From a phage, in NCBI GenBank assembly GCA_018027755.1, contig GCA_018027755.1_4098.1: a stretch of DNA of 64,000 nucleotides. The stretch is one strand, 5' to 3'. The notes under the pieces are model-generated. The model was not told the DNA's origin. It searched no databases and worked only from the letters and a program-made list of their open reading frames with translations. Made by a program: the position numbers and the translations under genes. Position 1 is the stretch's first letter; every line of letters starts with the position of its first letter. Below are positions 1,806 through 45,368 of this stretch, in pieces.

Positions 1806-1850
1806 AAAAAAGGGTTGACTTAGGTCGGCCCTTTTGCTATTATATCTATA
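1806..1850 (+). promoter_or_regulatory. composite element: A-run + hairpin overlapping TTGACT-N17-TATTAT promoter
   Basis: AGGGTTGAC..GTCGGCCCT stem between A-run and T-run; -35 1815-1820, -10 1838-1843; same element recurs at 35585, 39262, 42529, 45286. Confidence 0.5.
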
Positions 1851-1871
1851 TCGAAACGAAGGAGACAAACC

Positions 1872-2645
1872 ATGACCCGTCAAGAGAAAGCAATCCAAAT
1901 CGAAAAAAACTTCAATAGCATGATGGCTGCACTGGAATGCCTTCTTGATACACAAGCTAACTCTATCAACTCTCTGATCGTATCAGGTAAAGGTGGTGTT
2001 GGTAAAACTTATAACGTTGACCAACGGTTGCAGAAAGCTGATGATAACTTTGAAATCGACTACAAGAAAATCAGTGGTAAAGTAACTACTTTGGGTCTGT
2101 ACGAAGCACTGTATCGTTCACGTCATGCCGCATCAGTACTGTTACTTGATGACGTTGATATCTTCTCTGACGAGACTAATATTGATTTGCTTAAAGCTGT
2201 GTTGGATACGTCAGAGAAGCGTGTAGTTTCTTACGCGACTTCTGCTAAGTACCTGGAACAGCAGGGTATCCCTAAGCAGTTTGAATTCCGTGGTAAAGTA
2301 ATCTTTCTGACTAACAAAAACCTGTCACAGATTGCTAAAGGTAAAAGCAGCTTAGCACCACACATCGATGCACTGATCACTCGTAGTATCTTTGTTGACC
2401 TGCAACTGTTCACCAACGAAGAAGTGATGATTCACATTGAGAACATCATGAACAAAACTAACATCCTTGAAAACAATGGTGTTAACAAAAATGGTTGTAA
2501 AGCAATCCTGAATTGGATGCTGAACAACGAAGAACGTTTGCGTAGTCCATCACTGCGTATGCCAGTACTGATCGCTGGTTTGTATAATAAATTCCCATAC
2601 GATTGGGAATCAATGGCAGAGAATATGTTCCTTGAGAAAATTTAA
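1872..2645 (+). CDS. P-loop NTPase (deviant Walker A, ParA/MinD-like signature)
   Basis: SGKGGVGKTY Walker A and hydrophobic-LLLDDVD Walker B in translation; GGAGA RBS. Confidence 0.6.
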   Translation: MTRQEKAIQIEKNFNSMMAALECLLDTQANSINSLIVSGKGGVGKTYNVDQRLQKADDNFEIDYKKISGKVTTLGLYEALYRSRHAASVLLLDDVDIFSDETNIDLLKAVLDTSEKRVVSYATSAKYLEQQGIPKQFEFRGKVIFLTNKNLSQIAKGKSSLAPHIDALITRSIFVDLQLFTNEEVMIHIENIMNKTNILENNGVNKNGCKAILNWMLNNEERLRSPSLRMPVLIAGLYNKFPYDWESMAENMFLEKI

Positions 2646-2654
2646 TTACATGTA

Positions 2655-2683
2655 TTGACAGTACTACACTATGGTAGTACTAT
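2655..2683 (+). promoter_or_regulatory. sigma70-like promoter (TTGACA-N17-TACTAT)
   Basis: -35 2655-2660, -10 2678-2683; GGAG RBS then ATG 2713. Confidence 0.45.
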
Positions 2684-2712
2684 AACTTAATATTCACCAC
2701 CGGAGATACGAT

Positions 2713-3051
2713 ATGCTTGAGTTTTTTAATTCAGATACAATGATTAGTATTACTTTGATTTATCTGTTTGGTTTTTTCTTTTATCATGCACTGGTTGTAG
2801 TACTGTGGTATTTTAAAAAGAAAATTGTTTTTAAACTGTATCCAGTAAGGAATTCATCACTAGTTCTTTACACACTAGTTCAAGGTTTGTTTGCAATTGT
2901 TGGTCTTATGGCACACTTAATTTATTGTGCCAATCCTCACTTGAACTCAATCTCACAATATATTGTATTCTTTGGGTTGTTCATTTGGTTAGTTGTATAC
3001 TTAATCCATCTCATTATTCATGGTAGAGATAAAATTCGCGGAGACTTCTAA
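2713..3051 (+). CDS. small polytopic membrane protein, tandem family M
   Basis: ORF track; multiple hydrophobic segments; first of 7 abutting membrane ORFs. Confidence 0.6.
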   Translation: MLEFFNSDTMISITLIYLFGFFFYHALVVVLWYFKKKIVFKLYPVRNSSLVLYTLVQGLFAIVGLMAHLIYCANPHLNSISQYIVFFGLFIWLVVYLIHLIIHGRDKIRGDF

Positions 3052-3398
3052 TGTTTGAAGCTTATCTTGAGTTTTTAAGGAGTAGTTCAGTTGCACATTC
3101 ACTTGCAGGGATTATTCTAACAACTTATGTATCATTTTGGGTAGTTATGTTTCTAGGATGGTATTTTAAACGACAATTCTATAAACGTAATGGTGAAGAT
3201 TTTATGAATTCTGCCATTAATCAATCGTTGTTTGCATCAACATTGATTGCATGTATTGTAGCAACACTCACAGGAAAGGTACTACCAGCTTTTTCCGCAG
3301 TTTACGGCACACTTGGGATGATATGTTTAACTTTTATATTGACCATTAAAATTTGTTGTGTTATGATTGAACTTCGAAATAAGATACCGGAGGAATGA
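3051..3398 (+). CDS. small polytopic membrane protein, tandem family M
   Basis: ORF track; start overlaps upstream stop; hydrophobic segments. Confidence 0.6.
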   Translation: MFEAYLEFLRSSSVAHSLAGIILTTYVSFWVVMFLGWYFKRQFYKRNGEDFMNSAINQSLFASTLIACIVATLTGKVLPAFSAVYGTLGMICLTFILTIKICCVMIELRNKIPEE

Positions 3399-3733
3399 TG
3401 GAGTACTTTATTGATTTACTGCCGTGGTATATGAAAGTTAGTACTTTGTACTATATTATTAGTGCTGGATTCTACTTTCTGATGTGGTTCTTTAAACGAC
3501 CAATTTCAGTATTCATCGCTGATAACATGCTGCAATTAAAATTACACGCATGGTTTGGTATGGCGATGATTATGCCTATTATTCACTACTCAATGATTAG
3601 TAGAGGTTTCCGTTCTAATGGTGAACCAATTGTATTAGTATTCTATTGGGGTTCAACTATTGCATATGTAAGTTTGTTGTTGTTCCCAGTCGTTCATAAG
3701 TTACGTGCTAAAGTTCCTGATGCGAGGTACTAA
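3395..3733 (+). CDS. small polytopic membrane protein, tandem family M
   Basis: ORF track; ATGA overlap with upstream gene; hydrophobic segments. Confidence 0.6.
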   Translation: MMEYFIDLLPWYMKVSTLYYIISAGFYFLMWFFKRPISVFIADNMLQLKLHAWFGMAMIMPIIHYSMISRGFRSNGEPIVLVFYWGSTIAYVSLLLFPVVHKLRAKVPDARY

Positions 3734-4047
3734 TGGATATAGTAACATTGATTTACACGTTGTATTCATTCTATTTCATTATGTGTTGGGTTGGATTTTT
3801 ATTTGTACTCAAGATGTTTGATTATGTTGAAAAACAGATAAAAGAATTTTGTATTCCTTTTATCGGTTCAACCATTATTAGTGTTTCTTGTGTGTATTTT
3901 TTGGTTTTTGATCCACCAGATAACACTGCAATGATTGACTTGATGTTACTACCAACAACTGTTACTTTTTTATGTAGTCTGATGCCGCCGATTAGCCGTG
4001 GACTAACAGAATTTAGACGCAATCAAAAGCGTAAACGAGGGATGTAA
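3733..4047 (+). CDS. small polytopic membrane protein, tandem family M
   Basis: ORF track; C-terminus KRKRG shared with next gene. Confidence 0.6.
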   Translation: MDIVTLIYTLYSFYFIMCWVGFLFVLKMFDYVEKQIKEFCIPFIGSTIISVSCVYFLVFDPPDNTAMIDLMLLPTTVTFLCSLMPPISRGLTEFRRNQKRKRGM

Positions 4048-4415
4048 TGGAAATTGCTCTTATTATCTTAACTGCTATGCTGTTTATTAGTACTGTGGTT
4101 ATAATTGGTAAATTCTTTTGTGTATCATTTTTAGAAACGGTATACGATGAAATTGCTGATGATTATGAATTACAAGCCGGATTTTTCATTACGTATTGGC
4201 TTAGTTTATTTTGTCTAGTCATTGCTTGGATTTTACATATCTTTAAATGGGGTATGGTAGACGGTGATCCTATTATGGCAATTATTGTTCTAGTGTTTGG
4301 TATCCTTGGTGGTGCAGTGCATAATCTAATGGTTATCTGGCAAACTGTTCAATATGTTTTGGTTCCCTATTTCGAAAAGATGCACAGTACAATTAAAAAA
4401 CGTAAACGAGGTTAG
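4047..4415 (+). CDS. small polytopic membrane protein, tandem family M
   Basis: ORF track; C-terminus KKRKRG; hydrophobic segments. Confidence 0.6.
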   Translation: MEIALIILTAMLFISTVVIIGKFFCVSFLETVYDEIADDYELQAGFFITYWLSLFCLVIAWILHIFKWGMVDGDPIMAIIVLVFGILGGAVHNLMVIWQTVQYVLVPYFEKMHSTIKKRKRG

Positions 4416-4416
4416 T

Positions 4417-35625: not shown

Positions 35626-35647
35626 ATTCATTGAGAGATAGCTCACT

Positions 35648-36446: not shown

Positions 36447-36529
36447 AAATATTATCACAGTACTATTGACATAGTTTGATAGTACTGACATAATAACTTT
36501 TATCAACTACACTACTAAGGAATTAAAAA

Positions 36530-36709
36530 ATGGCTATCATCGCAAAAACTGAAATCGTTGGTCTGGATTCTATCATCATGACGTTTGAAGATCAAAAAGG
36601 TATGTATGTAGTTTCCTATGGTGATTATGTTCGGGAGTATGAAACGGTAGACGAAGCCTTTGAAAGTTATATTCGCCAGGTGAATAAAGCATACGACGAC
36701 TACCGCTAA
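36530..36709 (+). CDS. hypothetical protein (59 aa), paralog of 33383..33595
   Basis: Below track cutoff; MAIIAKTEIVGL..; same upstream promoter sequence. Confidence 0.5.
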   Translation: MAIIAKTEIVGLDSIIMTFEDQKGMYVVSYGDYVREYETVDEAFESYIRQVNKAYDDYR

Positions 36710-36810
36710 AATATATTACCAGTACTATTAAATCTATTGACAACGTTTGATAGTACTGTATAATAAGTTTTATAAACAGTAATTAACTTAACCTAAGAGA
36801 GAGAAACAAA

Positions 36811-36954
36811 ATGATCGCACTGGATTCATTCATCGACGCAGTACTGGCAAAAACTGGCGAGGATCTGACCGCAGAACAATACGCGATGATCGAGCAATGT
36901 CAGCAAAACGGTAAATCGGTGAAAGATACTGTTAAGATTATCCGCAAGATGTAA
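36811..36954 (+). CDS. hypothetical small protein (47 aa)
   Basis: Below track cutoff; AGAGAGAGAAAC leader then ATG. Confidence 0.4.
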   Translation: MIALDSFIDAVLAKTGEDLTAEQYAMIEQCQQNGKSVKDTVKIIRKM

Positions 36955-36960
36955 TATTAT

Positions 36961-36986
36961 AGCCCACTGGTTAACGCTGGTGGGCT
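36961..36986 (+). terminator. probable intrinsic terminator (weak T-tract)
   Basis: AGCCCAC-TGGTTAACGC-TGGTGGGCT hairpin; contains a GCTGGTGG octamer. Confidence 0.45.
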
Positions 36987-37059
36987 TTAATCATTTACCC
37001 TATACAATGCCAGTACTAAACCGTTTATCTCGTTAGAATGCGTTACAGGACGTTTAACA

Positions 37060-37257
37060 ATGATTAGCATGAAATCAGTACAAAAACAAATAGAAACATT
37101 ATCAAAAATTAAACGTAAACAGTACTCCTTAGAATATACAATCAATGGTAACTATCATCTAATGAAAGAAAATAATTTTATAGTCATTGATGAATCATTG
37201 CAAATCATTAGTATAGTACTGAAAGCATTAATCAATGACAGAAAAAAATTAAAATAA
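37060..37257 (+). CDS. hypothetical protein (65 aa)
   Basis: ORF track; AT-rich, weak RBS. Confidence 0.4.
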   Translation: MISMKSVQKQIETLSKIKRKQYSLEYTINGNYHLMKENNFIVIDESLQIISIVLKALINDRKKLK

Positions 37258-37317
37258 TCTATTGACAATATCATCCAGTACTGGCATAATACTTACATCA
37301 AGACGAGAACGTCACTA

Positions 37318-37342
37318 ACCCATAGGGTGCACAAATGTAACT
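37318..37342 (+). repeat. motif-1 copy (diverged)
   Basis: AACCCATAGGGTGCACAAATGTAAC. Confidence 0.4.
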
Positions 37343-37586
37343 ATATAATATCGTTCAATAAATGATCAAAAAAGTACTGGATCAATTTAACATAAGGAGT
37401 ATAATTCTGATCAATTCTTGATCAAAGGCAATATACGCAGTTGAATTTATATAGACAATACAAAGGCGTTACTATCCGTGGTAATGCTGGTGGATATGTA
37501 GTATCATATGGTTTGAATAAGATTAGCACTAGTAGTATTATTGTAGCATTACAGTACTATAGTATTTTTATAATGAGGTTAAAATA

Positions 37587-37844
37587 ATGGCAGTAGGATA
37601 CGCGAAAGACGGGGCCGAACAAGACGAGATTCACGCAGTGATTCAGGCCGCCGTTAACCACGCTAGAAAGCAAATTAACGCACAAAGAGAATCACTGGTA
37701 CATTGCCTCGACTGCGGCGATAAAATCCCTGAGAATCGACGCCAGGCCGTTATAGGGTGCATGTATTGTATTACTTGCCAGGAGGATCATGATAGTACTT
37801 TTAAAAGAGATCCGCGTAATTGTTGGCATAGATCTATGAGATAA
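37587..37844 (+). CDS. TraR/DksA-family C4 zinc-finger protein
   Basis: INAQRESLVHCLDCGDKIPENRR....CMYCITCQ matches TraR-type CxxC-N17-CxxC pattern. Confidence 0.65.
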   Translation: MAVGYAKDGAEQDEIHAVIQAAVNHARKQINAQRESLVHCLDCGDKIPENRRQAVIGCMYCITCQEDHDSTFKRDPRNCWHRSMR

Positions 37845-37907
37845 AAAGTATTGACAGTACTGAAAGATAGTGTATAATGTTTTATATCTTAACTGAGGAT
37901 AGTAATC

Positions 37908-38264
37908 ATGGGAATACAACATATCACGCGTACTACTGACAATGGAGAGATCACTGGTTATCAGGTACAGGGCAAAGTAGCACAATTGCAGTACTGGTTT
38001 GTTAAACGTGGAATCATTGCACCGGATCTTGATTATGACCGTGTAGCGTTTATTGATTCTCTTTATGTTGATCCTGATAGTCGGGGCAATGGTGAAGGTA
38101 ACGAATTAATGAATGCCTTTATTGATGCCGCCGGTGATTCAGATTGTATCATCTTAGAATGCGATACGGGAGAAGATAACGCCTTTAATCTTAAAGAATG
38201 GTACGAAGGTTTCGGATTCGAGGTATTGATAGATAGTGAATATCCTATCATGATTTTATCATAG
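37908..38264 (+). CDS. GNAT-family N-acetyltransferase-like protein
   Basis: IDSLYVDPDSRGNGEGNELM resembles GNAT acetyl-CoA motif (V-x-P-x-x-R-G-x-G); promoter upstream. Confidence 0.45.
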   Translation: MGIQHITRTTDNGEITGYQVQGKVAQLQYWFVKRGIIAPDLDYDRVAFIDSLYVDPDSRGNGEGNELMNAFIDAAGDSDCIILECDTGEDNAFNLKEWYEGFGFEVLIDSEYPIMILS

Positions 38265-38336
38265 TACTTGCATTTAGTTTTCAGTACTGTTATAGTACTT
38301 ACATCAAGGGGAAACGTCTTCCCCTACTAAGAGGAA

Positions 38337-38531
38337 ATGAAAATGGAAAACTTATCAAGTATTTTAGTACAAGATGATTTTGGCAATCCTGGTAGTGCTA
38401 TCATTGTTCGGGGTAATAAAGCAACGTTTGTTATTGCTGGTGGGCCAGTACAGCGTAGCATTAAAAATAATGCTGTTACCATTAATAATGTACGCTATCG
38501 CTTAGATAAAGAATTGATTCATAAACTTTAA
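38337..38531 (+). CDS. hypothetical protein (64 aa)
   Basis: ORF track; leader hairpin + AGAGGAAA RBS. Confidence 0.6.
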   Translation: MKMENLSSILVQDDFGNPGSAIIVRGNKATFVIAGGPVQRSIKNNAVTINNVRYRLDKELIHKL

Positions 38532-38615
38532 AAAGTATTTGACAATAGATTATAGTGCTGTATAATAAGTTACATGAAGGGGTGAAATGATTCTCCCCAC
38601 TAAGAGGAAAGAAAA

Positions 38616-38828
38616 ATGCAAGGTCAACTAATCGTTCGTAAATGGTCTGATACTAACGAAAAACCGTGGGATGTACAATACATCGGACCGGATGGGGTAT
38701 CACGTTATCAGCCTGGCGTAACGCATAGTACTGAGCAATTCGCAAACGCTCACCGCGAACGCCTGTTAGAATCCATGAAACAGGGATTCTGTGAAAAATT
38801 CATTCAAGATCATTGGCTGAAAGATTAA
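38616..38828 (+). CDS. hypothetical protein (70 aa)
   Basis: ORF track; leader hairpin + AGAGGAAA RBS. Confidence 0.6.
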   Translation: MQGQLIVRKWSDTNEKPWDVQYIGPDGVSRYQPGVTHSTEQFANAHRERLLESMKQGFCEKFIQDHWLKD

Positions 38829-38845
38829 TATAAGGAGTACAGCTT

Positions 38846-38938
38846 ATGCAAATGAATCCGATGATTATTGTTTTAGCTGTACTTATGATCATTCATGCAA
38901 TAGTAGAAGTATTAACGCAATCAGGAGTAATAAAATGA
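38846..38938 (+). CDS. hydrophobic micro-protein (30 aa)
   Basis: AAGGAG RBS; MQMNPMIIVLAVLMIIHAIVEVL.. Confidence 0.35.
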   Translation: MQMNPMIIVLAVLMIIHAIVEVLTQSGVIK

Positions 38939-39108
38939 TTCAAGTAGAATTATCAGTACTGAAAGATCTGTTTTATCGGTTAGGTACTACTGGCGAGTAT
39001 CCTAAAAGTGATACCGCAAAACTTTTTGTATCACTCGACTTATGGCAACGCGAACAATTAGTAATGTCCTGGCGTAAAGGTAAAGCAGATAGCGAGGTGA
39101 AAGCATGA
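38935..39108 (+). CDS. hypothetical small protein (57 aa)
   Basis: ATGA overlap with upstream micro-ORF. Confidence 0.4.
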   Translation: MIQVELSVLKDLFYRLGTTGEYPKSDTAKLFVSLDLWQREQLVMSWRKGKADSEVKA

Positions 39109-39254
39109 AAGAATTCTTATTCGAAGTAGTGTTTCAAGGTGTCGGTAGTAACCAACTGATTCGCTCAAGTGGTTACAATGTTAACCAGGCATGGAATAAC
39201 ATTAAACAAATGTACCCGAACGCTATCACCTATCGCAACCCGAAACAAGTTTAA
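39105..39254 (+). CDS. hypothetical small protein (49 aa)
   Basis: ATGA overlap; followed by composite terminator/promoter element. Confidence 0.4.
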   Translation: MKEFLFEVVFQGVGSNQLIRSSGYNVNQAWNNIKQMYPNAITYRNPKQV

Positions 39255-39261
39255 AAATAAT

Positions 39262-39303
39262 TGAAAAAGGGATTGACACCGGTCAGTCCCTTTGCTATTA
39301 TAT
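39262..39303 (+). promoter_or_regulatory. composite element: A-run + hairpin overlapping TTGACA-N17-TATTAT promoter
   Basis: AGGGATTGAC-ACCG-GTCAGTCCCT; -35 39273-39278, -10 39296-39301. Confidence 0.5.
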
Positions 39304-39320
39304 ACGCATAGAAACAAATC

Positions 39321-39345
39321 AGCCCACAGGGTGCATAAATGTATC
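39321..39345 (+). repeat. motif-1 copy
   Basis: AGCCCACAGGGTGCATAAATGTATC, followed by a GCTGGTGG octamer. Confidence 0.5.
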
Positions 39346-39429
39346 TATTGTTTGCTGGTGGCTAGTACTGAAAACTATTTTTAAAAAAGTACTTGCATTG
39401 TACTTAGAATCAAGTATAATGTTTTACAT

Positions 39430-39508
39430 CAGGACGGGGAACGAAACAAGTAACCCCGTTAAGTAGTCCAGGAGTAAGACATACGAAAAACTCCCCTGAT
39501 AAAATAGT
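39430..39508 (+). ncRNA. candidate about 80-nt leader/small RNA element, copy 2
   Basis: Near-identical to 28802..28881, again between tandem promoters. Confidence 0.35.
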
Positions 39509-39569
39509 TTGACAATAGAAATTAAACGAGTATAATACTTACATCAACCACTGATAAGGAAACATAAAA

Positions 39570-39845
39570 ATGCGGATTCTACTGACAGCTAACGAAATCG
39601 AACAAGTACTGACTACTAACCTGGAAGACTGGAAACGTGAAGCAGATATCCAGGCGGTTCAATGGCTTAACGATAAGTTAACGCCGGATGACTTAAGCAA
39701 GATTGTAGATCCTCAATTCTACGAAGATATTCACGACACCGCGTTAAGCGTCGAGGATGTACTTGATAAGCACTACATTGATACTGATTTACATGTTTAC
39801 GGTCGTAAAAACTTTATCACTATTCACGACATTTACAATACTTAA
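39570..39845 (+). CDS. hypothetical protein (91 aa)
   Basis: ORF track; AAGGAAAC RBS. Confidence 0.6.
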   Translation: MRILLTANEIEQVLTTNLEDWKREADIQAVQWLNDKLTPDDLSKIVDPQFYEDIHDTALSVEDVLDKHYIDTDLHVYGRKNFITIHDIYNT

Positions 39846-39932
39846 GTATTGACAAAGTATCTTAGTACTGTATAATAGTTTACATCAAGGCGGGGAAATG
39901 GTTCCCCTCCTAACTAAAAGAGAGAAATTAAA

Positions 39933-40115
39933 ATGGCTAAGTGCACTATCTGTAAGAAAGAAATCGTATTAGTTCCAAGTGCCCGTGAACGTGCCGCTCG
40001 GTTCGGTGGCAAAGCGTCAGACTATACAAAAATGTTTACTGCCCATGCAGATTGCCAGGTAGCAAAACGTTCACAAGAAAGCGTAGAATTAATGCGTAAA
40101 CTTTCCAAAAAATAA
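39933..40115 (+). CDS. small Cys-containing protein (60 aa)
   Basis: ORF track; MAKCTICKK...HADC; promoter + leader hairpin. Confidence 0.55.
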   Translation: MAKCTICKKEIVLVPSARERAARFGGKASDYTKMFTAHADCQVAKRSQESVELMRKLSKK

Positions 40116-40201
40116 GTATTGACAAAGTATCTTAGTACTGTATAATAGTTTACATCAAGTGAGGGGAAACGGTTCCCCTCCTAACAGAGAGAGAAATAAA
40201 A

Positions 40202-40525
40202 ATGGCTATGATCCTTACCCAGAAAGTGGAATTGAAAATTGTAACCTCCTTTGACATTAAAGTTAATCGCTGGACTGATCGGAACGGCAATACTTACCAC
40301 TCTTGCTACGTGTCTGCATTGATTGGTGATCGTTGGGAAGACCTGGGACACGAAACTTTTACATACGGTTACGGTACGCAAGGCGAATACACGGGCTTGG
40401 AGATCATTAAAGAAACCGTTATAGGTTTCAACCCGAAAGAAAAAGTTATTCACCGCATCGAAAAAGAGATTAACAAAGAAATAACAGTTCGCTACTACGA
40501 TGTAAAACGTAAGAAAGACATGTAA
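40202..40525 (+). CDS. hypothetical protein (107 aa), paralog of 33677..34021
   Basis: ORF track; C-terminal DVKRKKDM. Confidence 0.65.
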   Translation: MAMILTQKVELKIVTSFDIKVNRWTDRNGNTYHSCYVSALIGDRWEDLGHETFTYGYGTQGEYTGLEIIKETVIGFNPKEKVIHRIEKEINKEITVRYYDVKRKKDM

Positions 40526-40611
40526 TAGAATCCATTTAAAGTACTATTTGACATTACACAGATAGTACTTTATAATAGACTCTAACTTGTAGTACTAACT
40601 CAACTAATAGG

Positions 40612-41016
40612 ATGTATACCATGATTACTAAATTCTACGCTACCCGTGAAGCTGCCCGTATTGTTGCACGCGAGGAAGGAGCAGCATTTAAAGACATGGG
40701 AACGACAGCACCGAAAGGTCAACGCTGGGCCGTACAGTTCAAAGAAATCTCTGATATTGTGAATTCACCTGAGCCAGTACTGACAGCAGCAGAACTAAAA
40801 CGAGCGGATATGCTGGCGGCAATACTTGACGCTCAAGATGAATTTATCGCTGATTCTGATATCAAAGTACAGGTAAACCACACCGCATGGACTCACGCGG
40901 ATCACCTGGCAAACCTTAAGCGTCCAAGTGAACTGATTCGCAACCAGAAAGAGATCCGACACGACCGTAAGGGTAATCGTGTAACAGTATACAGTAAACG
41001 CCGCCAGGTTATCTAA
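40612..41016 (+). CDS. hypothetical protein (134 aa), paralog of 27927..28193
   Basis: ORF track; shared N- and C-terminal blocks with extra central insert. Confidence 0.6.
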   Translation: MYTMITKFYATREAARIVAREEGAAFKDMGTTAPKGQRWAVQFKEISDIVNSPEPVLTAAELKRADMLAAILDAQDEFIADSDIKVQVNHTAWTHADHLANLKRPSELIRNQKEIRHDRKGNRVTVYSKRRQVI

Positions 41017-41038
41017 TAACTTGCAGTACTAACAACAC

Positions 41039-41064
41039 GGCGGGATCAGTTCCCGCCTTTTTTA
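41039..41064 (+). terminator. intrinsic terminator
   Basis: GGCGGGA-TCAGT-TCCCGCC hairpin followed by TTTTTTA. Confidence 0.65.
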
Positions 41065-41077
41065 TAGGACAAACAAA

Positions 41078-41332
41078 ATGATTAAGGTTCAACTATATAA
41101 AGATAACATCTTACGGGTACACTATAAAGCACCGAAGAGAATCATCACAAAGGCCGTACAGCTTGCTAATGAGTTTATTAATGGTAACCTATTACCAAGG
41201 AAGTTAAGCAACGGGAAACTGCGTGTAATCGACGTGGACACTAACAACAGGATAGTAATCGAGAACACAGGAAAAATAAACCTTTATGAACACCAACAAT
41301 ATAATAAGAAAATAAAACTAATATCACGTTGA
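41078..41332 (+). CDS. hypothetical protein (84 aa)
   Basis: ORF track. Confidence 0.55.
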   Translation: MIKVQLYKDNILRVHYKAPKRIITKAVQLANEFINGNLLPRKLSNGKLRVIDVDTNNRIVIENTGKINLYEHQQYNKKIKLISR

Positions 41333-41385
41333 CAGTACTCAAATGTTTTAGTACTATGTACACATACCAACACGGGAGAAACAAA

Positions 41386-41604
41386 ATGAAATTATCTAAA
41401 ATCGAAAAAACAACTATTGATGTAGCAGTTAAGCACGGTTATACCTTTCGTAATGATTCACATTTTACCAATTTTCAACAAGGACAGAGAACTATTAAAA
41501 AACTAATTGACAAAGGCTTATTAGTTAAAGTAGATAACGGTAACGGTGTGGAGTATCAACCAACACAGGACGCATTTTATTTTAAGAAATATAATATTAT
41601 CTAA
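41386..41604 (+). CDS. hypothetical protein (72 aa)
   Basis: Track ORF trimmed to ATG 41386; TTGACA-N17-TACTAT promoter at about 41334. Confidence 0.55.
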   Translation: MKLSKIEKTTIDVAVKHGYTFRNDSHFTNFQQGQRTIKKLIDKGLLVKVDNGNGVEYQPTQDAFYFKKYNII

Positions 41605-41662
41605 TTGACAGTACTCAAATGTTTTAGTACTATATGTACATACCAACACGGGGAAAAACAAA

Positions 41663-41905
41663 ATGATTACTTTAGAAAAACGTATCAAAGAAACTACATC
41701 GCTGGTGGAATTGTTAACAGTACTCAAATGTAAAACAACACCATTCAGCACGCCGGACTTTATTAATATGGTTGATGTTAATGGTCGCTATCGTATCACG
41801 GTCGAACAAGGAGCGGCGAAAGTATTCAGTACTAAAAACACTAAGGAAGTGATCCACGCCGTTAATGTTAAAAAAGTAGTTGCCATTGATAGTAAAGTAC
41901 TGTAA
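41663..41905 (+). CDS. hypothetical protein (80 aa)
   Basis: ORF track; upstream region duplicates that of 41386 gene. Confidence 0.55.
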   Translation: MITLEKRIKETTSLVELLTVLKCKTTPFSTPDFINMVDVNGRYRITVEQGAAKVFSTKNTKEVIHAVNVKKVVAIDSKVL

Positions 41906-41936
41906 GATAGTTTCATTAACTCAAGGAGTAAATGCA

Positions 41937-42521
41937 ATGCGTAATTATACTAAATTCATCCGTACACTGTCAGAAATGGAAACCAACAAAGAGATCCTTT
42001 CAGCTTGTCGGTTAGCTGGCCTGGAGATCATCGGTGCTGGTTCTTCCCGTATAGTATTCGCTTTAAATGATCGGTTAGTGATTAAGGTCGCGAATTGTGA
42101 TGCGGGTGTCGAACAAAATGAAACTGAATGTAAGGTATGGAATTTTTTAGACTATGACCGCCCTCAGTTGAAACAGTACTTTGCAAAGGTGCATATGCAT
42201 TTATGCGATCCTGATAATATGTTTATCGTTATGGATCGGTTGAGTACTGCAAGCAAAGGCAGTGTGAAGCACGTTAACGCGTGCAATGAATTAAAGTACA
42301 ATATTAAACGTAATGCAATCGAACGCCAGCACCGCTTTGCTGATGCACTACAACACGTTGATGATACATTATCAACACTAACGATAAGAGATATCAGAAA
42401 ACAGAATATCGGCCAGGATCGTAATGGCCTTATTAAAGTACTTGATTACGGTTTAACCCGCAATATCTGGAATCAGTACTATAAAAAGCGTGATGTGGCA
42501 GCAAGTAAGGTAACACGATAA
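41937..42521 (+). CDS. protein-kinase-like protein (194 aa)
   Basis: Track ORF trimmed to ATG 41937 after AAGGAG; IIGAGSSRIVF (Gly loop), VIKV, IRDIRKQN, KVLDYG resemble kinase motifs. Confidence 0.45.
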   Translation: MRNYTKFIRTLSEMETNKEILSACRLAGLEIIGAGSSRIVFALNDRLVIKVANCDAGVEQNETECKVWNFLDYDRPQLKQYFAKVHMHLCDPDNMFIVMDRLSTASKGSVKHVNACNELKYNIKRNAIERQHRFADALQHVDDTLSTLTIRDIRKQNIGQDRNGLIKVLDYGLTRNIWNQYYKKRDVAASKVTR

Positions 42522-42528
42522 AAAAGAT

Positions 42529-42570
42529 TAAAAAAGGGATTGACTCCGGTCAGTCCCTTTGCTATTATAT
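42529..42570 (+). promoter_or_regulatory. composite element: A-run + hairpin overlapping TTGACT-N17-TATTAT promoter
   Basis: -35 42540-42545, -10 42563-42568. Confidence 0.5.
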
Positions 42571-42592
42571 ATCCATTGAGAGATAACTCACT

Positions 42593-42617
42593 GACCCATA
42601 GGGTGCGGAAGTGTATC
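42593..42617 (+). repeat. motif-1 copy
   Basis: GACCCATAGGGTGCGGAAGTGTATC. Confidence 0.5.
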
Positions 42618-42742
42618 TATTATATAAGTATTCAGTACTGAAAACTATTTTTAAAAAAGTACTTGCATTGTACTTAGAATCAAGTATAATGTTTTATATC
42701 GAGAGGGGGAAATGGTTCTCCCTGGCAATAAGGAATAAAATC

Positions 42743-42964
42743 ATGACTACAATGACTTGCATTTACGCTTCCAATCGTCTGAATGATGCGGCCTTTAATG
42801 TTGATTCAGAATATCAATGTTATCGGGATGAAAATAAAAAAGTTTTTGTAGTTGATAATAATGGTTTCCATATTGAATTACAATCCGGCTTCACTGGTGT
42901 TGATGGTAAATCAGTATGGGGCGTACAGGATGATAAAGGTACATATCATTTTAAACGTAATTAA
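42743..42964 (+). CDS. hypothetical protein (73 aa)
   Basis: Track ORF 42611..42964 trimmed to ATG after promoter, leader hairpin and AAGGAA RBS. Confidence 0.55.
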   Translation: MTTMTCIYASNRLNDAAFNVDSEYQCYRDENKKVFVVDNNGFHIELQSGFTGVDGKSVWGVQDDKGTYHFKRN

Positions 42965-43048
42965 GTATTTGACAAAGTATCTTAGTACTGTATAATAGTT
43001 TACATCAAGGGGAGAATAGTTCTCCCCGATACTAAAAGGAATAAAATC

Positions 43049-43456
43049 ATGACTACTACCAATCAAGCTCGGAACATCACCAACGATAAAAATCATGCTG
43101 CAATGGTCGCTGGTTACATTGAAGCTATGCAATTCAGTACTGTACACAATGAGAACGGCGAATACCTGGAAGATTATGAATTATCAGAGCAAGCCCATCA
43201 AGCGGCAGTGATTGCATGTTCACGTTTCCTTGCTGTACATGGTGAAGATATGGAAACAGTACAAAAACACCATAATCCTGATTATACTTATAGTCATGCA
43301 GGTCATGATCTCTTTCTTACTCGCGAAGGTCACGGCACTGGTTTTTGGGATCGTGATATCGGTCACTATGATGATATATTCACTAAGTACTGCGAAGAAA
43401 TCAACGTTTGCGATCCCTATGTAGGCGATGATAATCTAATCTATATGGGCGAATAA
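43049..43456 (+). CDS. hypothetical protein (135 aa), His-rich
   Basis: ORF track; leader hairpin + AAGGAA RBS. Confidence 0.6.
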   Translation: MTTTNQARNITNDKNHAAMVAGYIEAMQFSTVHNENGEYLEDYELSEQAHQAAVIACSRFLAVHGEDMETVQKHHNPDYTYSHAGHDLFLTREGHGTGFWDRDIGHYDDIFTKYCEEINVCDPYVGDDNLIYMGE

Positions 43457-43544
43457 AAGTATTTGACAAAGTATATCAGTACTGTATAATAGTTTACATC
43501 AAGGGGAGAATAGTTCTCCCCCACCAATAAAAGGAAACAAAATT

Positions 43545-43817
43545 ATGTCCAGCTACTCCGCTACTATGATCATTAAAGATATGAACGGTAATCCTACTTC
43601 TGCTGGTGGATCATTTGGAAACATTAATTTAGATGGGCGGTTATCCATGCAATCAGCCATCGATACAGCGAAAGAAGTTTTTAAGAATGAATGTACTGTA
43701 AGCAAGCTGGATTATATGGGATTCGCTATCGAGAAAACTAATCGTTTTGTGAACTACAAAAATCCACTGATGATTGATACTAACCTGAAAGCTAACGAAG
43801 TGGAATACTTATTATGA
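43545..43817 (+). CDS. hypothetical protein (90 aa)
   Basis: ORF track. Confidence 0.6.
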   Translation: MSSYSATMIIKDMNGNPTSAGGSFGNINLDGRLSMQSAIDTAKEVFKNECTVSKLDYMGFAIEKTNRFVNYKNPLMIDTNLKANEVEYLL

Positions 43818-44005
43818 CAGTTGAAGAAGTTAAAAAAGTACTGGCAGTACTACGCTATCATAATCATTGCAAGGTGAAGAATGATCCTGATTATCTCGAT
43901 TCATCCCTGGAAGAGGATACACTACAAGCAATAAGCCATATGCAAAAAATGCTTAAGCGTATGACCGAAAAGAATAGACCGGACTATATCGGAAATAAAA
44001 TTTAA
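43814..44005 (+). CDS. hypothetical protein (63 aa)
   Basis: ORF track; ATGA overlap. Confidence 0.55.
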   Translation: MTVEEVKKVLAVLRYHNHCKVKNDPDYLDSSLEEDTLQAISHMQKMLKRMTEKNRPDYIGNKI

Positions 44006-44091
44006 AAAGTACTTGCATTGTAGTTAGATTAACGTATAATGTTTTATATCGAGAGGGGAAATGGTTTCCCCTCAAGTCCAGGAGATACACC

Positions 44092-44355
44092 ATGAACACT
44101 ATCGAAATCACTATCAATGCACACGTATACGACAACGTAGTACTGCAAACTACTATGACCGCTAATGATACCAGTACTTTGCGGAATACTGTTATTAGTG
44201 CCGTATGTGCTGCAATCGGTGATGTTGCCCTGGAAAATGCAGAACATATCAACAACGGTTTCACTATGTGCAAACGTGATAACGCAAAACATATCATCGT
44301 GGAAGGTTACGGCGGTGTAGAATTTAATGTTTATATGAAAAAAGTATTTGCATAA
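44092..44355 (+). CDS. hypothetical protein (87 aa)
   Basis: ORF track. Confidence 0.6.
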   Translation: MNTIEITINAHVYDNVVLQTTMTANDTSTLRNTVISAVCAAIGDVALENAEHINNGFTMCKRDNAKHIIVEGYGGVEFNVYMKKVFA

Positions 44356-44422
44356 TAACTAAAACAAAGTATAATGTTTTGCATAGGGGGAGATATCCTC
44401 CCCCACTAAAAGGAGTAATAAA

Positions 44423-44647
44423 ATGGCTAACTTTGATGAACTGATGCGGGAAGTAGCTACCCTGGCAGAAGAGAAGAAATCATTCGATTCTATCTATAAC
44501 ACCTCTTACCGTGATTCAGTACTGGCATGTACTCAGGATCAAAAAGATGAACTAATCGCCACATATCATGAAGCATGGAAGTACTACCGCCAATGGGAGA
44601 AAGAAGAAAGCGAGTCTACCATCAACGGCATCAATAATCTAATCTAA
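44423..44647 (+). CDS. hypothetical protein (74 aa)
   Basis: ORF track. Confidence 0.6.
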   Translation: MANFDELMREVATLAEEKKSFDSIYNTSYRDSVLACTQDQKDELIATYHEAWKYYRQWEKEESESTINGINNLI

Positions 44648-44723
44648 AAGTTTTATTTCAGTACTATTGACATAGCTTGATAGTACTGATGTAATAACTT
44701 TACTAACTACAAGGGGAAACATA

Positions 44724-44981
44724 ATGGAACAGTTCACACAATATCGGGTAAATCCTCAAGCTATGGCCTACGTAGAAGACCATAAAACGTTACCAGTACT
44801 GCAACCAGTTAAAGGCCATATCTATCGTGCAATGTCGTGGAGTACGGCCCAGGATGGCTATAAAACCGTAGCTGTCGGTATGTACTGCGGTAATGGTGAA
44901 TGGTTTGATCCAAATAATCCGGTCGCCGTTGACAGTACTGAAAAAATGAAATGGGCCGACTACATCGAAGATATTTCATAA
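44724..44981 (+). CDS. hypothetical protein (85 aa)
   Basis: ORF track. Confidence 0.6.
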   Translation: MEQFTQYRVNPQAMAYVEDHKTLPVLQPVKGHIYRAMSWSTAQDGYKTVAVGMYCGNGEWFDPNNPVAVDSTEKMKWADYIEDIS

Positions 44982-45071
44982 AAACTATTTGACAGTACTA
45001 ACCAGTAATGTATAATGTTTTACATAGAGCGGGGGAATAGTTCTCCCGCCAATAGTTTGGAGTAAAACATT

Positions 45072-45272
45072 ATGTCTATCGCTATCGCCCTGGTTGAAGT
45101 ACTGAAAGAAGCTAAAGCCAACCTTATCGATGTACAGATTAAGGAATTGCAAAACGGCTTAATCGGCTGCACTTGTACCGCTGGCGGTGCGGCAGACTAT
45201 CGAGAACACGAATCACTCGAATCACTGGTTCGGTATCTTACCATGATCGTTGATGATTGGAGAATCATCTAA
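45072..45272 (+). CDS. hypothetical protein (66 aa)
   Basis: ORF track. Confidence 0.55.
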   Translation: MSIAIALVEVLKEAKANLIDVQIKELQNGLIGCTCTAGGAADYREHESLESLVRYLTMIVDDWRII

Positions 45273-45285
45273 CAAAAAAAGAATA

Positions 45286-45327
45286 AAAAAAGGGATTGAC
45301 TCCGGTCAGTCCCTTTGCTATTATATA
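45286..45327 (+). promoter_or_regulatory. composite element: A-run + hairpin overlapping TTGACT-N17-TATTAT promoter
   Basis: -35 45297-45302, -10 45320-45325. Confidence 0.5.
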
Positions 45328-45343
45328 CGCATAGACAAAAACT

Positions 45344-45368
45344 AGCCCACAGGGTGCATAAGTGTATC
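45344..45368 (+). repeat. motif-1 copy
   Basis: AGCCCACAGGGTGCATAAGTGTATC, followed by a GCTGGTGG octamer. Confidence 0.5.

Follow-up and report, generated by a model that had tools for sequence, protein, structure and literature searches.

Five places in one stretch of phage DNA carry what looks like a terminator hairpin and a promoter on the same bases, and four of them run on into a conserved motif, motif-1. On which strand does each part work, and what might the combination do? We analysed these elements in a stretch of 64,000 nucleotides (GCA_018027755.1, contig GCA_018027755.1_4098.1; hereafter the window).

The window and its direct terminal repeat

The window belongs to an Asteriusvirus (PBECO4/121Q-like) jumbo phage, a giant phage of E. 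coli. Alignment to the phage fEgEco12 located one large feature:

25395..46775, plus strand: direct terminal repeat (DTR), ~21 kb, boundaries approximate

Position 1 of fEgEco12 falls at 25395 and the end of its DTR (20,993) at about 46775. The fEgEco12 repeat was confirmed by PhageTerm and restriction digests (PMC13070987), and the annotation of vB_Ec-M-J gives a DTR of 1-21525. All motif-1 copies and four of the five composites lie inside the DTR; composite 1 lies outside, and a scan of the window found no motif-1 beyond the repeat. Non-coding, repeat-rich DNA makes up the first ~1.7 kb of the repeat.

Terminator/promoter composites

A repeat search returned exactly the five hairpin/promoter composites that an earlier note on this DNA had claimed (at 1793, 35573, 39251, 42518 and 45274). 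The described layout of A-run, stem, 4-nt loop, stem, TTTGC and TATTAT was present in all five by direct reading and regex scan. So was the -35 hexamer in the left arm with the -10 exactly 17 bp on: each copy has TTGAC(A/T), a 17-bp spacer and TG at -15/-14 (TGnTATTAT). The arm sequences are commoner than chance (9 against 3.0±1.9 expected; 8 against 1.7±1.2 expected).

1808..1843, plus strand: composite 1, hairpin AAAAGGGTTGAC-TTAG-GTCGGCCCTTTT, -35 TTGACT at 1815-1820, TGC-TATTAT at 1838-1843; no motif-1, and an RBS and ORF (1872-2645) directly downstream
35588..35623, plus strand: composite 2, predicted terminator hairpin 35588-35615, -35 TTGACT at 35595-35600, -10 TATTAT at 35618-35623, TG at -15/-14
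39266..39301, plus strand: composite 3, predicted terminator hairpin 39266-39293, -35 TTGACA at 39273-39278, -10 TATTAT at 39296-39301
42533..42568, plus strand: composite 4, predicted terminator hairpin 42533-42560, -35 TTGACT at 42540-42545, -10 TATTAT at 42563-42568
45289..45324, plus strand: composite 5, predicted terminator hairpin 45289-45316, -35 TTGACT at 45296-45301, -10 TATTAT at 45319-45324

We gathered 38 distinct homologous hairpins, without requiring a -10 box, from phages of E. coli, Pectobacterium, Cronobacter, Serratia, Klebsiella and Salmonella and from metagenomic relatives. TTGAC and, 17-18 bp on, TAnnnT were invariant in 38/38. The outer stem covaries: 37 cells show two-sided change against 5.1±3.6 in shuffles, and none of 500 shuffles scored as high. 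The predicted promoter-in-hairpin design is kept in at least six phage groups. Motif-1 is missing downstream of about half of the promoter-bearing hairpins, so the hairpin and what follows it are separable parts.

The five composites support the claim that a terminator-type hairpin and a near-consensus sigma70 promoter share the same DNA. The hairpin had also been described as strong on the minus strand, and this is contradicted by RNA folding: the plus strand folds at -15.9 to -19.9 kcal/mol and the minus strand at -6.4 to -14.0, so that plus-strand RNA is the more stable by 4.5-9.5 kcal/mol in every composite (-16.4 on plus and -9.4 on minus for composite 1). Wobble (G.U) pairs and UNCG loops make the difference. 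In 34 of the 38 homologous hairpins the first T of TTGAC stands opposite G rather than A, which makes a U.G wobble on the plus strand and a C.A mismatch on the minus strand, and the plus-strand loops are mostly UUCG, UCCG or UACG. The composite hairpins lie directly 3' of plus-strand ORF stop codons. The gene strand was also the choice of three other annotation teams, who recorded these hairpins as ARNold terminators (G17, including the ortholog of composite 3), ARNold stem-loops (GAP32) and a terminator, method unstated (Munch). Because the plus-strand hairpin is the stronger, each composite is predicted to be a plus-strand terminator fused to a restart promoter.

A leader RNA module

The motif-1 core, CCCAYNGGGTGC, occurs 10 times in the window against 0.38 expected, and none of 100 shuffles reaches 10. 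The count of seven motif-1 copies and four reverse complements given earlier matches ours if one degenerate plus-strand copy is included:

26657, 28600, 35650, 37319, 39323, 42595 and 45346, plus strand: motif-1 (core search, and the degenerate copy at 26657)
26511, 26728, 28668 and 30588, minus strand: motif-1 (core search)

Among some 86 distinct copies collected, a sigma70-type -10 box is detectable on the same strand for 82/86, and it ends 19-30 nt (mostly 21-28 nt) upstream of the motif. This fixed, short distance from its own promoter indicates that motif-1 is no free-standing site but a 5' module that is transcribed. Confinement to the DTR, this spacing and the covarying hairpin that precedes the motif were all absent from the earlier reading.

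Comparison of the copies indicates that motif-1 is the core of a module of ~50 nt. A 5' hairpin, or an A-rich substitute, is joined by a YUAR linker to the invariant CCC-AYN-GGGUGC; two mutually exclusive small hairpins and a -10-like box (TATAAT or YAAAAT, at +13 to +18 after GGGUG) complete it. The 5' hairpin (4-5 bp) begins ~2-3 nt from the inferred start site (CA, alignment columns 4-5). It is 92.5% paired, against 18-63% with the register slid, and two-sided change is seen at each of its four pairs (103 cells against 31.8±4.7; 0/500 shuffles as high). About a quarter of the copies lack it, and in variant modules the A-rich stretch GAAACAA stands in its place. The core may fold alternatively as RCCC/GGGU or as GGGUGC/GYRUCY. 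The CCC-GGG loop varies from 3 to 4 nt with the stem retained. Variation in the 3' arm, GYRUCY, is confined to transitions that wobble pairing tolerates. The arm is 90.4% paired, and 34-65% in slid registers; this pairing is strand-specific because of its G.U pairs. Both small core hairpins are weak (4-6 bp, many G.U pairs) and neither shows two-sided covariation, GGGUG being invariant, an invariance that sequence-specific recognition would explain equally well. We found no Rfam family and no paper matching the module: a structured leader RNA of ~50 bases, kept across related giant phages, has as far as we could find apparently never been described.

The module is used as an mRNA leader, in stand-alone antisense units of ~100 nt that end at terminators, and in convergent pairs. 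The statement that motif-1 and then a second promoter follow four composites was borne out at 35.6, 39.3, 42.5 and 45.3 kb. The leader copies are:

35626..35678, plus strand: leader RNA module (covariance-model match, 33.3 bits), 5' hairpin TGAG-AGATAG-CTCA, CCCACCGGGTGC, GTATC, TATTAT; then P2 (TTGCAA-16-TATAAT, 35717-35744) and ORF 35796-36137
37295..37347, plus strand: leader RNA module with promoter TTGACA-17-TGgCATAAT (37262-37290); opens a leader of ~270 nt, with Chi at 37486, ahead of a DksA/TraR zinc-finger gene (37587-37844)
39312..39351, plus strand: leader RNA module, variant type, A-rich AGAAACAA replacing the 5' hairpin; Chi at 39354 next, then P2 (39393-39420)
42571..42623, plus strand: leader RNA module (covariance-model match, 40.1 bits), 5' hairpin TGAG-AGATAA-CTCA; then P2 (42663-42690) and ORF 42743-42964
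45333..45374, plus strand: leader RNA module, variant type (covariance model); then Chi at 45404, promoter 45438-45466 and ORF 45520-45852; the last unit ahead of the DTR end and a long promoter-poor operon

Antisense units and convergent pairs

The remaining copies lie in the left part of the DTR:

26483..26790, both strands: units near the left DTR end, a solitary minus-strand unit and a convergent pair
26483-26535, minus strand: the solitary unit
26657-26683, plus strand: motif of the degenerate plus unit of that pair, then T7, making a terminator-like hairpin
26699-26751, minus strand: minus unit of that pair, promoter 26783-26756
28543..28722, both strands: convergent pair, plus promoter 28546-28574 with module 28577-28628, minus promoter 28718-28690 with module 28681-28640
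30505..30645, minus strand: stand-alone antisense unit, promoter TTGACA-17-TGgCATAAT at 30645-30617, RNA module 30612-30560

In the stand-alone unit an AU-rich linker follows the module and runs to the reverse face of a bidirectional terminator (30515-30537); the predicted RNA is ~100 nt and holds no ORF. Five other phages carry seven equivalent units between them, with the terminator +36 to +40 past the motif. The region 28543..28722 is as a whole an imperfect inverted repeat of ~180 bp with a T8 end on the plus strand. The long stems proposed for two motif pairs do form on folding, 26636-26760 at -41.9 kcal/mol (z -3.3) and 28581-28700 at -46.6 (z -4.9); as minus-strand RNA the latter reaches -30.3.

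What the module may do

We tentatively favour, at somewhat short of an even chance, a reading in which the module is a co-transcriptional regulatory RNA and the composites are transcription-unit boundary modules of an early region that fills the 21-kb DTR and would be transcribed by host RNA polymerase. The plus-strand hairpin would close the upstream early unit as an intrinsic terminator. TTGAC(A/T) in its left arm and loop, with TGnTATTAT, would form a sigma70 extended -10 promoter, as sequence and conservation suggest, so that transcription could restart a few bases past its stop. The restarted transcript, by comparison of the copies, would open with the portable ~50-nt module, which may act as RNA during its own synthesis: the mutually exclusive hairpins and the -10-like box would make a promoter-proximal pause or attenuation device, perhaps working like HK022 putL or an attenuator switch. 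Polymerases from these promoters might then elongate, or read through terminators, unlike those from the ~40 ordinary early promoters, whose leaders open with a conserved hairpin, GGGGAGAA-nnnn-TTCTCCCC (repeat search). The same module would be used on the opposite strand in the ~100-nt antisense units and the convergent pairs. ORFs without their own promoter follow strong terminators at 29904, 41039 and 46369, and past the right DTR end promoters are scarce for 10 kb; we count both in favour of a need for read-through. Against pausing or attenuation we count the 5' hairpin missing from about a quarter of the copies, the weakness of the core hairpins and their lack of two-sided covariation, a design shorter and simpler than that of putL, and the separability of hairpin and module.

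The closest rival, possible but unlikely in our view, makes the module the functional core of abundant early trans-acting small RNAs: a seed that would pair with a conserved RNA of host or phage, or else a decoy or sponge that would titrate an RNA-binding protein (Hfq, for instance); in plus-strand units, processing would cut it from the 5' end of the mRNA. Six phages have between them eight solitary minus-strand units that line up promoter, module, AU-rich linker and intrinsic terminator; these hold no ORF and predict RNAs of ~100 nt, and their constant terminator at +36 to +40 nt looks more like a small-RNA gene than a read-through device. Most plus-strand units, however, have no terminator ahead of the next promoter or gene. 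The 12-nt core, invariant in phages of at least six host genera, fits a conserved target or partner, but no complementary target was found in the window except the units themselves, and BLAST against E. coli genomes found no similarity. A-rich, ARN-like sequence (AGAACAA, GAGAAA, GAAAACAA) makes up the 5' hairpin loop or the unstructured stretch that replaces it, and terminator U-tails follow, a combination typical of class II Hfq-binding sRNAs. In PA5oct, a distant relative, the DTR gives rise to abundant ncRNAs (PMC7318152), yet their sequence is unrelated to the module.

It is rather unlikely that the module is an RNA stability or processing cassette, its 5'-terminal hairpin guarding transcripts from 5'-end-dependent decay and its core and convergent-pair stems serving as RNase III, RNase E or phage RNase sites that set mRNA ends, much as RNase III sites do in the early region of T7. 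The hairpin does start ~2-3 nt from the inferred transcription start, the ~40 ordinary early leaders likewise open with a conserved hairpin, and the convergent pairs form near-perfect stems of 85 to 120 nt, more stable in plus-strand RNA. A stabiliser alone, however, needs no invariant 12-nt core, fixed-distance -10-like box or dedicated promoters, and a quarter of the copies lack the hairpin.

Action of motif-1 as double-stranded DNA seems improbable. It could serve a phage or host protein as operator or roadblock, shutting these promoters off, or be the upstream element of a second promoter read by a phage-encoded sigma factor, CCCAYN lying exactly 17 bp from the -10-like box. CCC...GGGTGC is invariant and at a fixed, ungapped distance from the TATAAT-like hexamer, the outer CCC/GGG is palindromic, and phages of this group encode their own sigma70-family factor (PMC5259590). 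Against a DNA site we count the same-strand -10 box upstream of 82/86 copies and the absence of the motif from the window beyond the DTR. The 1-nt variation in CCC-to-GGG spacing suits an RNA loop and is awkward for a DNA site; the adjacent hairpin covaries, and variable positions show only strand-specific, wobble-compatible transitions.

A role in DNA metabolism for the convergent and outward-facing units near the DTR ends, through R-loops that prime replication or inverted repeats that aid DTR duplication or processing at packaging (as proposed for T7 concatemer processing), is very improbable. In its favour, all genera examined have convergent pairs at ~1-1.3 kb and ~3.2 kb from the left end of the DTR, CBB and GAP32 also have a pair near the right end, and the first ~1.7 kb of the repeat is non-coding and repeat-rich. 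Against it, most units are gene leaders spread through the DTR, the plus-strand leader copies are left unexplained, and no origin or pac site was identified in the sequence.

Comparison with known systems

For the favoured reading, a pausing or attenuating leader, the nearest parallel is HK022 putL, a cis-acting antiterminator RNA that starts at +2/+3 of an early phage promoter and has two stem-loops and a -10-like pause box (PMC9378689). Like putL, the module, a putative counterpart, would be transcribed by host RNA polymerase from an early phage promoter, starts at +2-3 nt and has two stem-loops; a -10-like box lies in or next to each of the two elements, and intrinsic terminators follow. 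It differs in length (~50 nt, against ~70-73 nt for putL), in its stems (4-6 bp, where putL has two long ones and a triple helix) and in its invariant core, which is unrelated, and it occurs ~11 times per repeat on both strands, where putL occurs twice.

As at lambda PR'/Q and in sigma70-dependent promoter-proximal pausing, an early -10-like hexamer could hold sigma70 and pause the polymerase pending regulation. The box lies at ~+48 to +55 in the module and at +1 to +6 in lambda PR'/Q, and no Q-like protein or Q-binding element was identified here. The minus-strand units resemble class II Hfq-binding sRNAs such as ChiX in their own promoter, ARN-like A-rich 5' part, AU-rich linker and terminator hairpin with a U tail; most module copies, in contrast, are mRNA leaders rather than discrete genes, and the link to Hfq is putative.

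The terminal redundancy of SPO1 and the first-step-transfer region of T5 are host-takeover and pre-early modules. They too are long terminal repeats full of small early genes, each of which has its own strong host-sigma promoter, with terminators between them. Their gene content is unrelated, and to our knowledge no promoter-in-terminator design or conserved leader RNA has been described in them.

The composites themselves recall terminators that overlap a downstream promoter, and bidirectional terminators, with a GC-rich stem-loop, A/T runs, a gene end and a sigma70 promoter within a few bases. Here, however, the -35 hexamer lies inside the predicted terminator stem and the -10 starts 2-3 nt past the U-tract; the G.U bias lets only the plus-strand RNA fold well, and the opposite strand gains no TTGAC. 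Unlike in those overlapping terminators, the arrangement is kept in at least 38 hairpins over several phage groups.

Genomic Setting of the Composite Elements

A megablast search with the 35–46 kb part of the window matched 99 phage records. The top matches were Asteriusvirus jumbo phages of Escherichia (vB_Ec-M-J, fEgEco12, G17, and PBECO4/121Q-like phages) at 94–96% identity. Window position 25395 aligns with position 1 of fEgEco12. The direct terminal repeat (DTR) of fEgEco12, 20,993 bp long and confirmed by both PhageTerm and restriction digests (PMC13070987), ends at what is window position ~46775. The DTR annotated in vB_Ec-M-J measures 21,525 bp. The fEgEco12 alignment thus divides the window into a right-hand unique region (1–25.4 kb), one DTR copy (25.4–46.8 kb), and a left-hand unique region. 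Four of the five composites (hairpins with an embedded promoter, at 1806, 35585, 39262, 42529, and 45286) and all copies of motif-1, the core of a leader RNA module, lie inside the DTR; only the composite at 1806 is outside.

The terminator-embedded promoter is present in Asteriusvirus, Mimasvirus (CBB and GAP32), and Eneladusvirus (Serratia BF and Yersinia fHe-Yen9-03). The same promoter-hairpin design was also found in the Klebsiella RaK2, K64-1, and Muenster relatives, Salmonella 7t3 and Munch, and metagenomic relatives. When IMG/VR was scanned with an exact pattern, most of the hits were RaK2-like jumbo genomes. Of 22 metagenomic loci searched with a covariance model of the leader module, about a dozen were confirmed to contain it. 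The short contigs among these are probably fragments of RaK2-like phages, and the remaining loci look like chance pattern matches.

The Composite Hairpin Is Assigned to the Plus Strand

An earlier note had listed five composites, and a repeat search, direct reading, and a regex scan all bore this out: they form one repeat family of exactly five copies. Every copy has the same layout, consisting of an A-run, a 9–12 bp stem with a 4-nt loop, TTTGC, and TATTAT. The same note had called the hairpin strong on the minus strand, and this assignment had to be reversed. The plus-strand RNA folds at −15.9 to −19.9 kcal/mol versus −6.4 to −14.0 kcal/mol for the minus strand, because its G.U wobbles become C.A mismatches in the minus-strand version. 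Most loops are UUCG, UCCG, or UACG with a C-G closing pair, and UNCG loops stabilize RNA. All genes around the composites are on the plus strand, and each hairpin begins 7–17 nt past the stop codon of a plus-strand ORF. The annotations of G17, Munch, and GAP32 all place the orthologous hairpins on the gene strand; the first two call them terminators and GAP32 calls them stem-loops (ARNold was used in G17 and GAP32). Stability, loop type, gene-end position, and orthologue annotations thus all argue for a plus-strand rather than a minus-strand terminator.

As in an intrinsic terminator, a stable GC-rich stem-loop is found in the transcribed-strand RNA at the gene end; the weak point is the short U-tract 3′ of the stem (UUU(U)GCUAUUAU, 3–4 consecutive U). 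A consensus terminator scan took three of the four DTR copies, the paired flanking A/T bases being counted as stem. On the minus strand the tail is longer and the stem weaker. Transcription is predicted to terminate at these plus-strand hairpins.

A Predicted Promoter Is Conserved within the Terminator Hairpin

All five copies also match the sigma70 extended −10 consensus: TTGACA or TTGACT, a spacer of exactly 17 bp, and TGC-TATTAT, with the −35 box in the left arm and loop and TG at −15/−14. We gathered homologous hairpins by their stem and TTGAC alone, with no −10 box required. TAnnnT was found 17–18 bp downstream in 38 of 38 distinct hairpins, and TTGAC was likewise invariant. The −10 variants were TATTAT, TATACT, TACTAT, TATAAT, TATAGT, TATCAT, TATTCT, and TATTGT. 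The first T of TTGAC is paired with G in 34 of the 38 hairpins, and at the next two positions U-A alternates with U.G and G-C with G.U. Because of the near-universal U.G at the first T, the right arm would carry no TTGAC on the minus strand and hence no antisense promoter. Two-sided changes were seen in five stem pairs, four of them in the outer stem adjoining TTGAC; there were 37 cells with such changes versus 5.1±3.6 in shuffles, and none of 500 shuffles scored as high. Judged from this comparison, the promoter elements are conserved independently of the hairpin sequence and the promoter is under selection. The embedded promoters are expected to fire.

A weaker, AGTACT-based hairpin spans the −35 box and spacer of many further early promoters. 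Motif-1 follows about half of the GC-rich promoter-hairpins and is absent after the other half, the copy at 1806 being one that lacks it.

Motif-1 Belongs to a Predicted Transcribed Leader Module

The motif-1 core, CCCAYNGGGTGC, occurs 10 times in the window versus 0.38 expected. The earlier counts of seven forward and four reverse copies held, one degenerate copy at 26657 included, and RNA folding upheld the proposal that both forward/reverse pairs form long stems (z −3.3 and −4.9). Across nine sequence sets we found ~86 distinct copies of CCC-N(2-5)-GGGTG. A sigma70-type −10 box ends 19–30 nt upstream on the same strand in 82 of the 86, mostly at 21–28 nt; in the other four a simple regex detected none. 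Within the window, the promoters of the units are of the TGn type (TGgCATAAT, TGcTATTAT) or carry TATAAT. A conserved CA is the likely start site of the module transcripts. The module hairpin begins ~2–3 nt after this putative start, and CCC comes 21–30 nt after the −10 box. From this arrangement we take motif-1 to be part of a transcribed module.

A MAFFT alignment failed to register the hairpin at the 5′ end of the module, and a covariance model was used instead, built from 13 seeds with only this hairpin annotated. It gave 79 matches in 258 kb. All four pairs change two-sidedly, with GC, CG, AU, UA, and UG at the same position. Two-sided cells numbered 103 versus 31.8±4.7 in shuffles (0 of 500 as high) and pairing was 92.5% versus 18–63% in slid register, in an alignment that is fitted to the model and so favours the structure. 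The variety of stems is visible in the raw sequences (GCCA/TGGC, GGAG/CTCC, GACG/CGTC, ACCG/CGGT, TGAG/CTCA, and CAAA/TTTG). The loops are A-rich (GAGAAA, GCGAAA, AGAACAA, AGATAA), and in ~21 of 78 copies an unstructured A-rich GAAAACAA or AGAAACAA takes the place of the hairpin. Taken together, the alignments show that terminator stem, promoter elements, and 5′ hairpin are conserved and covary.

The Core Can Form Two Mutually Exclusive Hairpins

After a YUAR linker, the core reads CCC (100%), A, Y, N, GGGUG (100%), C (95%), then R K A(84%) R N U(93%) G Y R U C(89%) Y, followed by A U W R W. Hairpin A (RCCC-AYN-GGGU) is 94.5% paired, with a loop of 3 or 4 nt and A-U or G.U as closing pair. Hairpin B (GGGUGC-N6-GYRUCY) is 90.4% paired versus 34–65% when slid, and five of its pairs vary one-sidedly, solely by G-C/G.U or U-A/U.G exchanges. 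The two hairpins are mutually exclusive because both use GGGU, and two-sided covariation is impossible for either because GGGUG never varies; each is compatible with the aligned sequences. The hexamer 3′ of hairpin B is −10-like (TATAAT, TATTAT, TATAGT), with YAAAAT in a second class. In three copies (window 26664, GAP32 17348, and CBB 15231), hairpin B and a U5–U7 run score as a terminator.

Other identities of the core were considered and rejected. In a leader peptide with GGGUG as Shine-Dalgarno sequence and NUG 5 nt later, the third start-codon position is G in only ~59% of copies. Against a T4 MotA-box-like TGCATAA, the bases past TGC are not constant, and the −10-like box follows at a spacing of 7 nt, not 11–13. 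Where a CsrA or RegB GGA/GGAG loop would stand, ~40% of copies read CAUAA.

The Module Occurs in Three Contexts

The units fall into three contexts of fixed geometry. In the first, plus-strand units lie 80–250 nt upstream of a plus-strand gene, frequently with a second, ordinary early promoter (P2) between; in Salmonella 7t3 (unit 16262) the module runs straight into a Shine-Dalgarno sequence and ATG. The second comprises solitary units on the minus strand, which meet a bidirectional terminator from its reverse face, always at +36 to +40 nt. Six phages supply eight examples, including window 30645–30505(−). With their own promoter, no ORF, and a predicted RNA of ~100 nt, these have the layout of a terminator-ended small RNA gene. 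In the third, convergent pairs have the reverse-complement motif of the partner at +45 (or +56, +63, +67). Such pairs lie ~1–1.3 kb and ~3.2 kb from the left DTR end in every genus examined, and CBB and GAP32 have an additional one near the right DTR end. The pairs are large imperfect inverted repeats that fold better as plus-strand RNA (−46.6 versus −30.3 kcal/mol for the core of the 28.5-kb pair). The 28.5-kb pair should also terminate plus-strand read-through, because there is a T8 at its plus-strand end. A simple deletion within a convergent pair was rejected as the origin of the short composite, since the parts do not come in a matching order.

The Surrounding Early Region

The DTR holds 113 sigma70-like sites versus 67±9 expected. 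About 45 are near-consensus and serve ~60 small plus-strand ORFs. Most of these near-consensus promoters have a common 5′-UTR hairpin, GGGGAGAA-nnnn-TTCTCCCC, just 5′ of the Shine-Dalgarno sequence, a second conserved leader structure distinct from the motif-1 module. Plus-strand terminators are few in the DTR. Three strong ones are followed within 20–25 nt by an ORF that lacks a promoter:

Terminators and genes of note in the DTR
29904–29942, plus strand: strong terminator, then a promoterless ORF
37587–37844: gene for a DksA/TraR zinc-finger protein (Pfam match), behind a 270-nt motif-1 leader
41039–41078, plus strand: strong terminator, then a promoterless ORF
41078–41332: gene for a ParE-like protein (Pfam match), directly after terminator 41039
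46369–46412, plus strand: strong terminator, then a promoterless ORF

Without promoters of their own, the ORFs after terminators 29904, 41039, and 46369 would need read-through to be expressed. Over the 10 kb right of the DTR, promoter-like sites are below chance (83 versus 104±9), and 46845–57400 holds ~45 tiny overlapping plus-strand ORFs (50–130 aa) with a single good terminator (57402). The promoterless ORFs and this promoter-poor 10 kb are circumstantial grounds that differential read-through could be useful to the phage.

Several further features of the region were recorded. About 40 ordinary early promoters at 27.0–46.0 kb (e.g., 43008–43030) share the start region GTTTTACATC. The self-complementary AGTACT occurs 280 times in the window versus ~22 expected, densest at 20–44 kb, and CAGTACTG 63 times. 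In most early promoters, AGTACT is found beside both the −35 box (AGTACTTGCAA) and the −10 box (CAGTACTGTATAAT, CAGTACTGGCATAAT). Many spacer hairpins, and the terminators of the minus-strand paralogues, likewise have arms formed by AGTACT. Twelve tandem RCC1-repeat paralogue genes (6540–20874, minus strand, ~245–450 aa, most 371–415 aa) share a conserved N-terminus and upstream region, and each has a GCCAGTAC-nnnn-GTACTGGC terminator. Three other plus-strand terminators (31634–31650, 32366–32387, and 36961–36986) have AGCCCAC...GTGGGCT stems, the AGCCCAC heptamer being common to them and motif-1; the stem of the third contains a Chi site. Near-consensus minus-strand promoters at 26414, 26545, and 26756, in the non-coding left part of the DTR, face the physical left genome end with no ORF downstream.

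Chi Sites and Repeats in the DTR

Chi (GCTGGTGG) occurs nine times on the plus strand of the window, eight of them in the DTR, versus ~0.2 expected, and four times on the minus strand.

Chi sites on the plus strand
25983, plus strand: Chi
32474, plus strand: Chi
36976, plus strand: Chi
37486, plus strand: Chi
38436, plus strand: Chi
39354, plus strand: Chi
41701, plus strand: Chi
43602, plus strand: Chi
45404, plus strand: Chi

Every relative examined has 6–14 plus-strand and 0–2 minus-strand Chi sites per DTR locus, an orientation recognizable by RecBCD entering from the right genome end. Several sites are just past motif-1 or within terminator stems or the spacers of promoters. At 25971–25990, ~580 bp from the left physical genome end, two Chi sites stand back to back as a palindrome, CCACCAGC-acaa-GCTGGTGG, which is kept in fEgEco12 (578/590) and TH47. 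The first 1.7 kb of the DTR, which is non-coding, also contains an imperfect tandem array of 8-nt units, CTGGATGG / CTAGACGG, at 26188–26316 (periods 8, 16, 24, and 32), ~0.8 kb from the left terminus. Just upstream of this array, at 26117–26160, are two GGATTTTGGGCGTAG repeats.

Possible Functions

The explanation that best covers the whole is a plus-strand terminator, a restart promoter, and a co-transcriptional regulatory RNA module, a tentative reading that we consider a real possibility. We infer that the module functions as RNA. Ranked first for that function, and still doubtful, is a leader acting co-transcriptionally in pausing, attenuation, or antitermination. Next comes a trans-acting small RNA or protein decoy, about which we are likewise doubtful; it is favoured by the constant length of the minus-strand units. 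Use of the module as a processing or stability cassette seems unlikely. The core transitions are strand-specific and the hairpin A loop tolerates a 1-nt length change, which favours a role at the RNA level over one in duplex DNA; we regard a duplex-DNA operator or an alternative-sigma promoter as quite unlikely. A role at the DNA ends is highly improbable.

The co-transcriptional reading can be made more specific. The ~50-nt module might be a new nascent-RNA switch, factor-independent or phage-factor-dependent, that reprograms host RNA polymerase at restart promoters, which we think rather unlikely. Such a switch would act either by put-like antitermination or by attenuation, with hairpins A and B as the alternatives and a sigma70-dependent pause coupled to them. 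With it, RaK2-like jumbo phages would have a second class of early transcripts, and the promoter inside the terminator would be the device by which reprogrammed polymerases take over from ordinary ones.

RaK2-like jumbo phages (Asteriusvirus, Mimasvirus, Eneladusvirus, and the Klebsiella/Salmonella relatives) rely on host RNA polymerase and have been proposed for phage therapy. The outcome for them is, first, a sequence-level model of how the 21-kb early region is divided into units. The second is a compact natural part, terminator plus promoter, whose conservation includes compensatory changes and which is a possible insulator for synthetic biology. The third is a conserved structured RNA, apparently without a name so far, with ~10 copies in each terminal repeat. 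Should this RNA prove to be a small RNA or decoy, it would count as a new early host-takeover factor.

Comparison with Known Systems

As a variant of known parts, the terminator-embedded promoter is new and well conserved. The CBB paper lists no promoters other than generic RpoD-like ones with UP elements, and promoters are not discussed in the genome papers on Sharanji and fEgEco12.

For the leader RNA, also a conserved motif, there is no Rfam match: Rfam 15 gave no family at gathering score over the whole window and, for two units at E≤10, solely unrelated families and generic long-hairpin (miRNA-precursor-like) matches. A tRNA/tmRNA scan found none. Literature searches on Asteriusvirus, CBB, RaK2, jumbo-phage RNA-seq, and antitermination RNAs turned up no paper describing the element; searches with the literal motif strings led only to unrelated studies (human, rat, Drosophila, Vibrio, Yersinia). 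The leader has no similarity to E. coli genomes, and no base-pairing target of the minus-strand units was found within the window.

Candidate relationships were rejected in three cases. The PA5oct ncRNA001, an RNA-seq-supported ncRNA in the DTR of a distant relative, is unrelated (best covariance-model score 8.4 bits). A CRISPR-repeat mimic (RNA anti-CRISPR) did not fit, as the E. coli type I-E and type I-F repeats were unmatched at ≤3 mismatches. For a lambda-type nut site, boxA (CGCUCUUA) is not near the units, the single CGCTCTTA in the window being at 58135, at chance level and far from any unit; nor is the loop boxB-like, since boxB is a pentaloop whereas the small hairpin of the module has a 3–4 nt AYN loop.

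By position and form, the closest functional analogue would be HK022 putL, which starts at +2/+3 of PL and has two stem-loops and a −10-like pause box (PMC9378689). Put RNA counters pausing and termination by binding the zinc-binding domain of the RNA polymerase beta′ subunit. Like put, the module is predicted to be an element of the nascent RNA that comes right after the start site of an early promoter. Put RNA is ~70 nt with two long stem-loops whereas the module is ~50 nt with stems of 4–5 bp and 4–6 bp, which by size and structure places the module outside that class. If the RNA does act on RNA polymerase, it would be only the second known phage put-like system.
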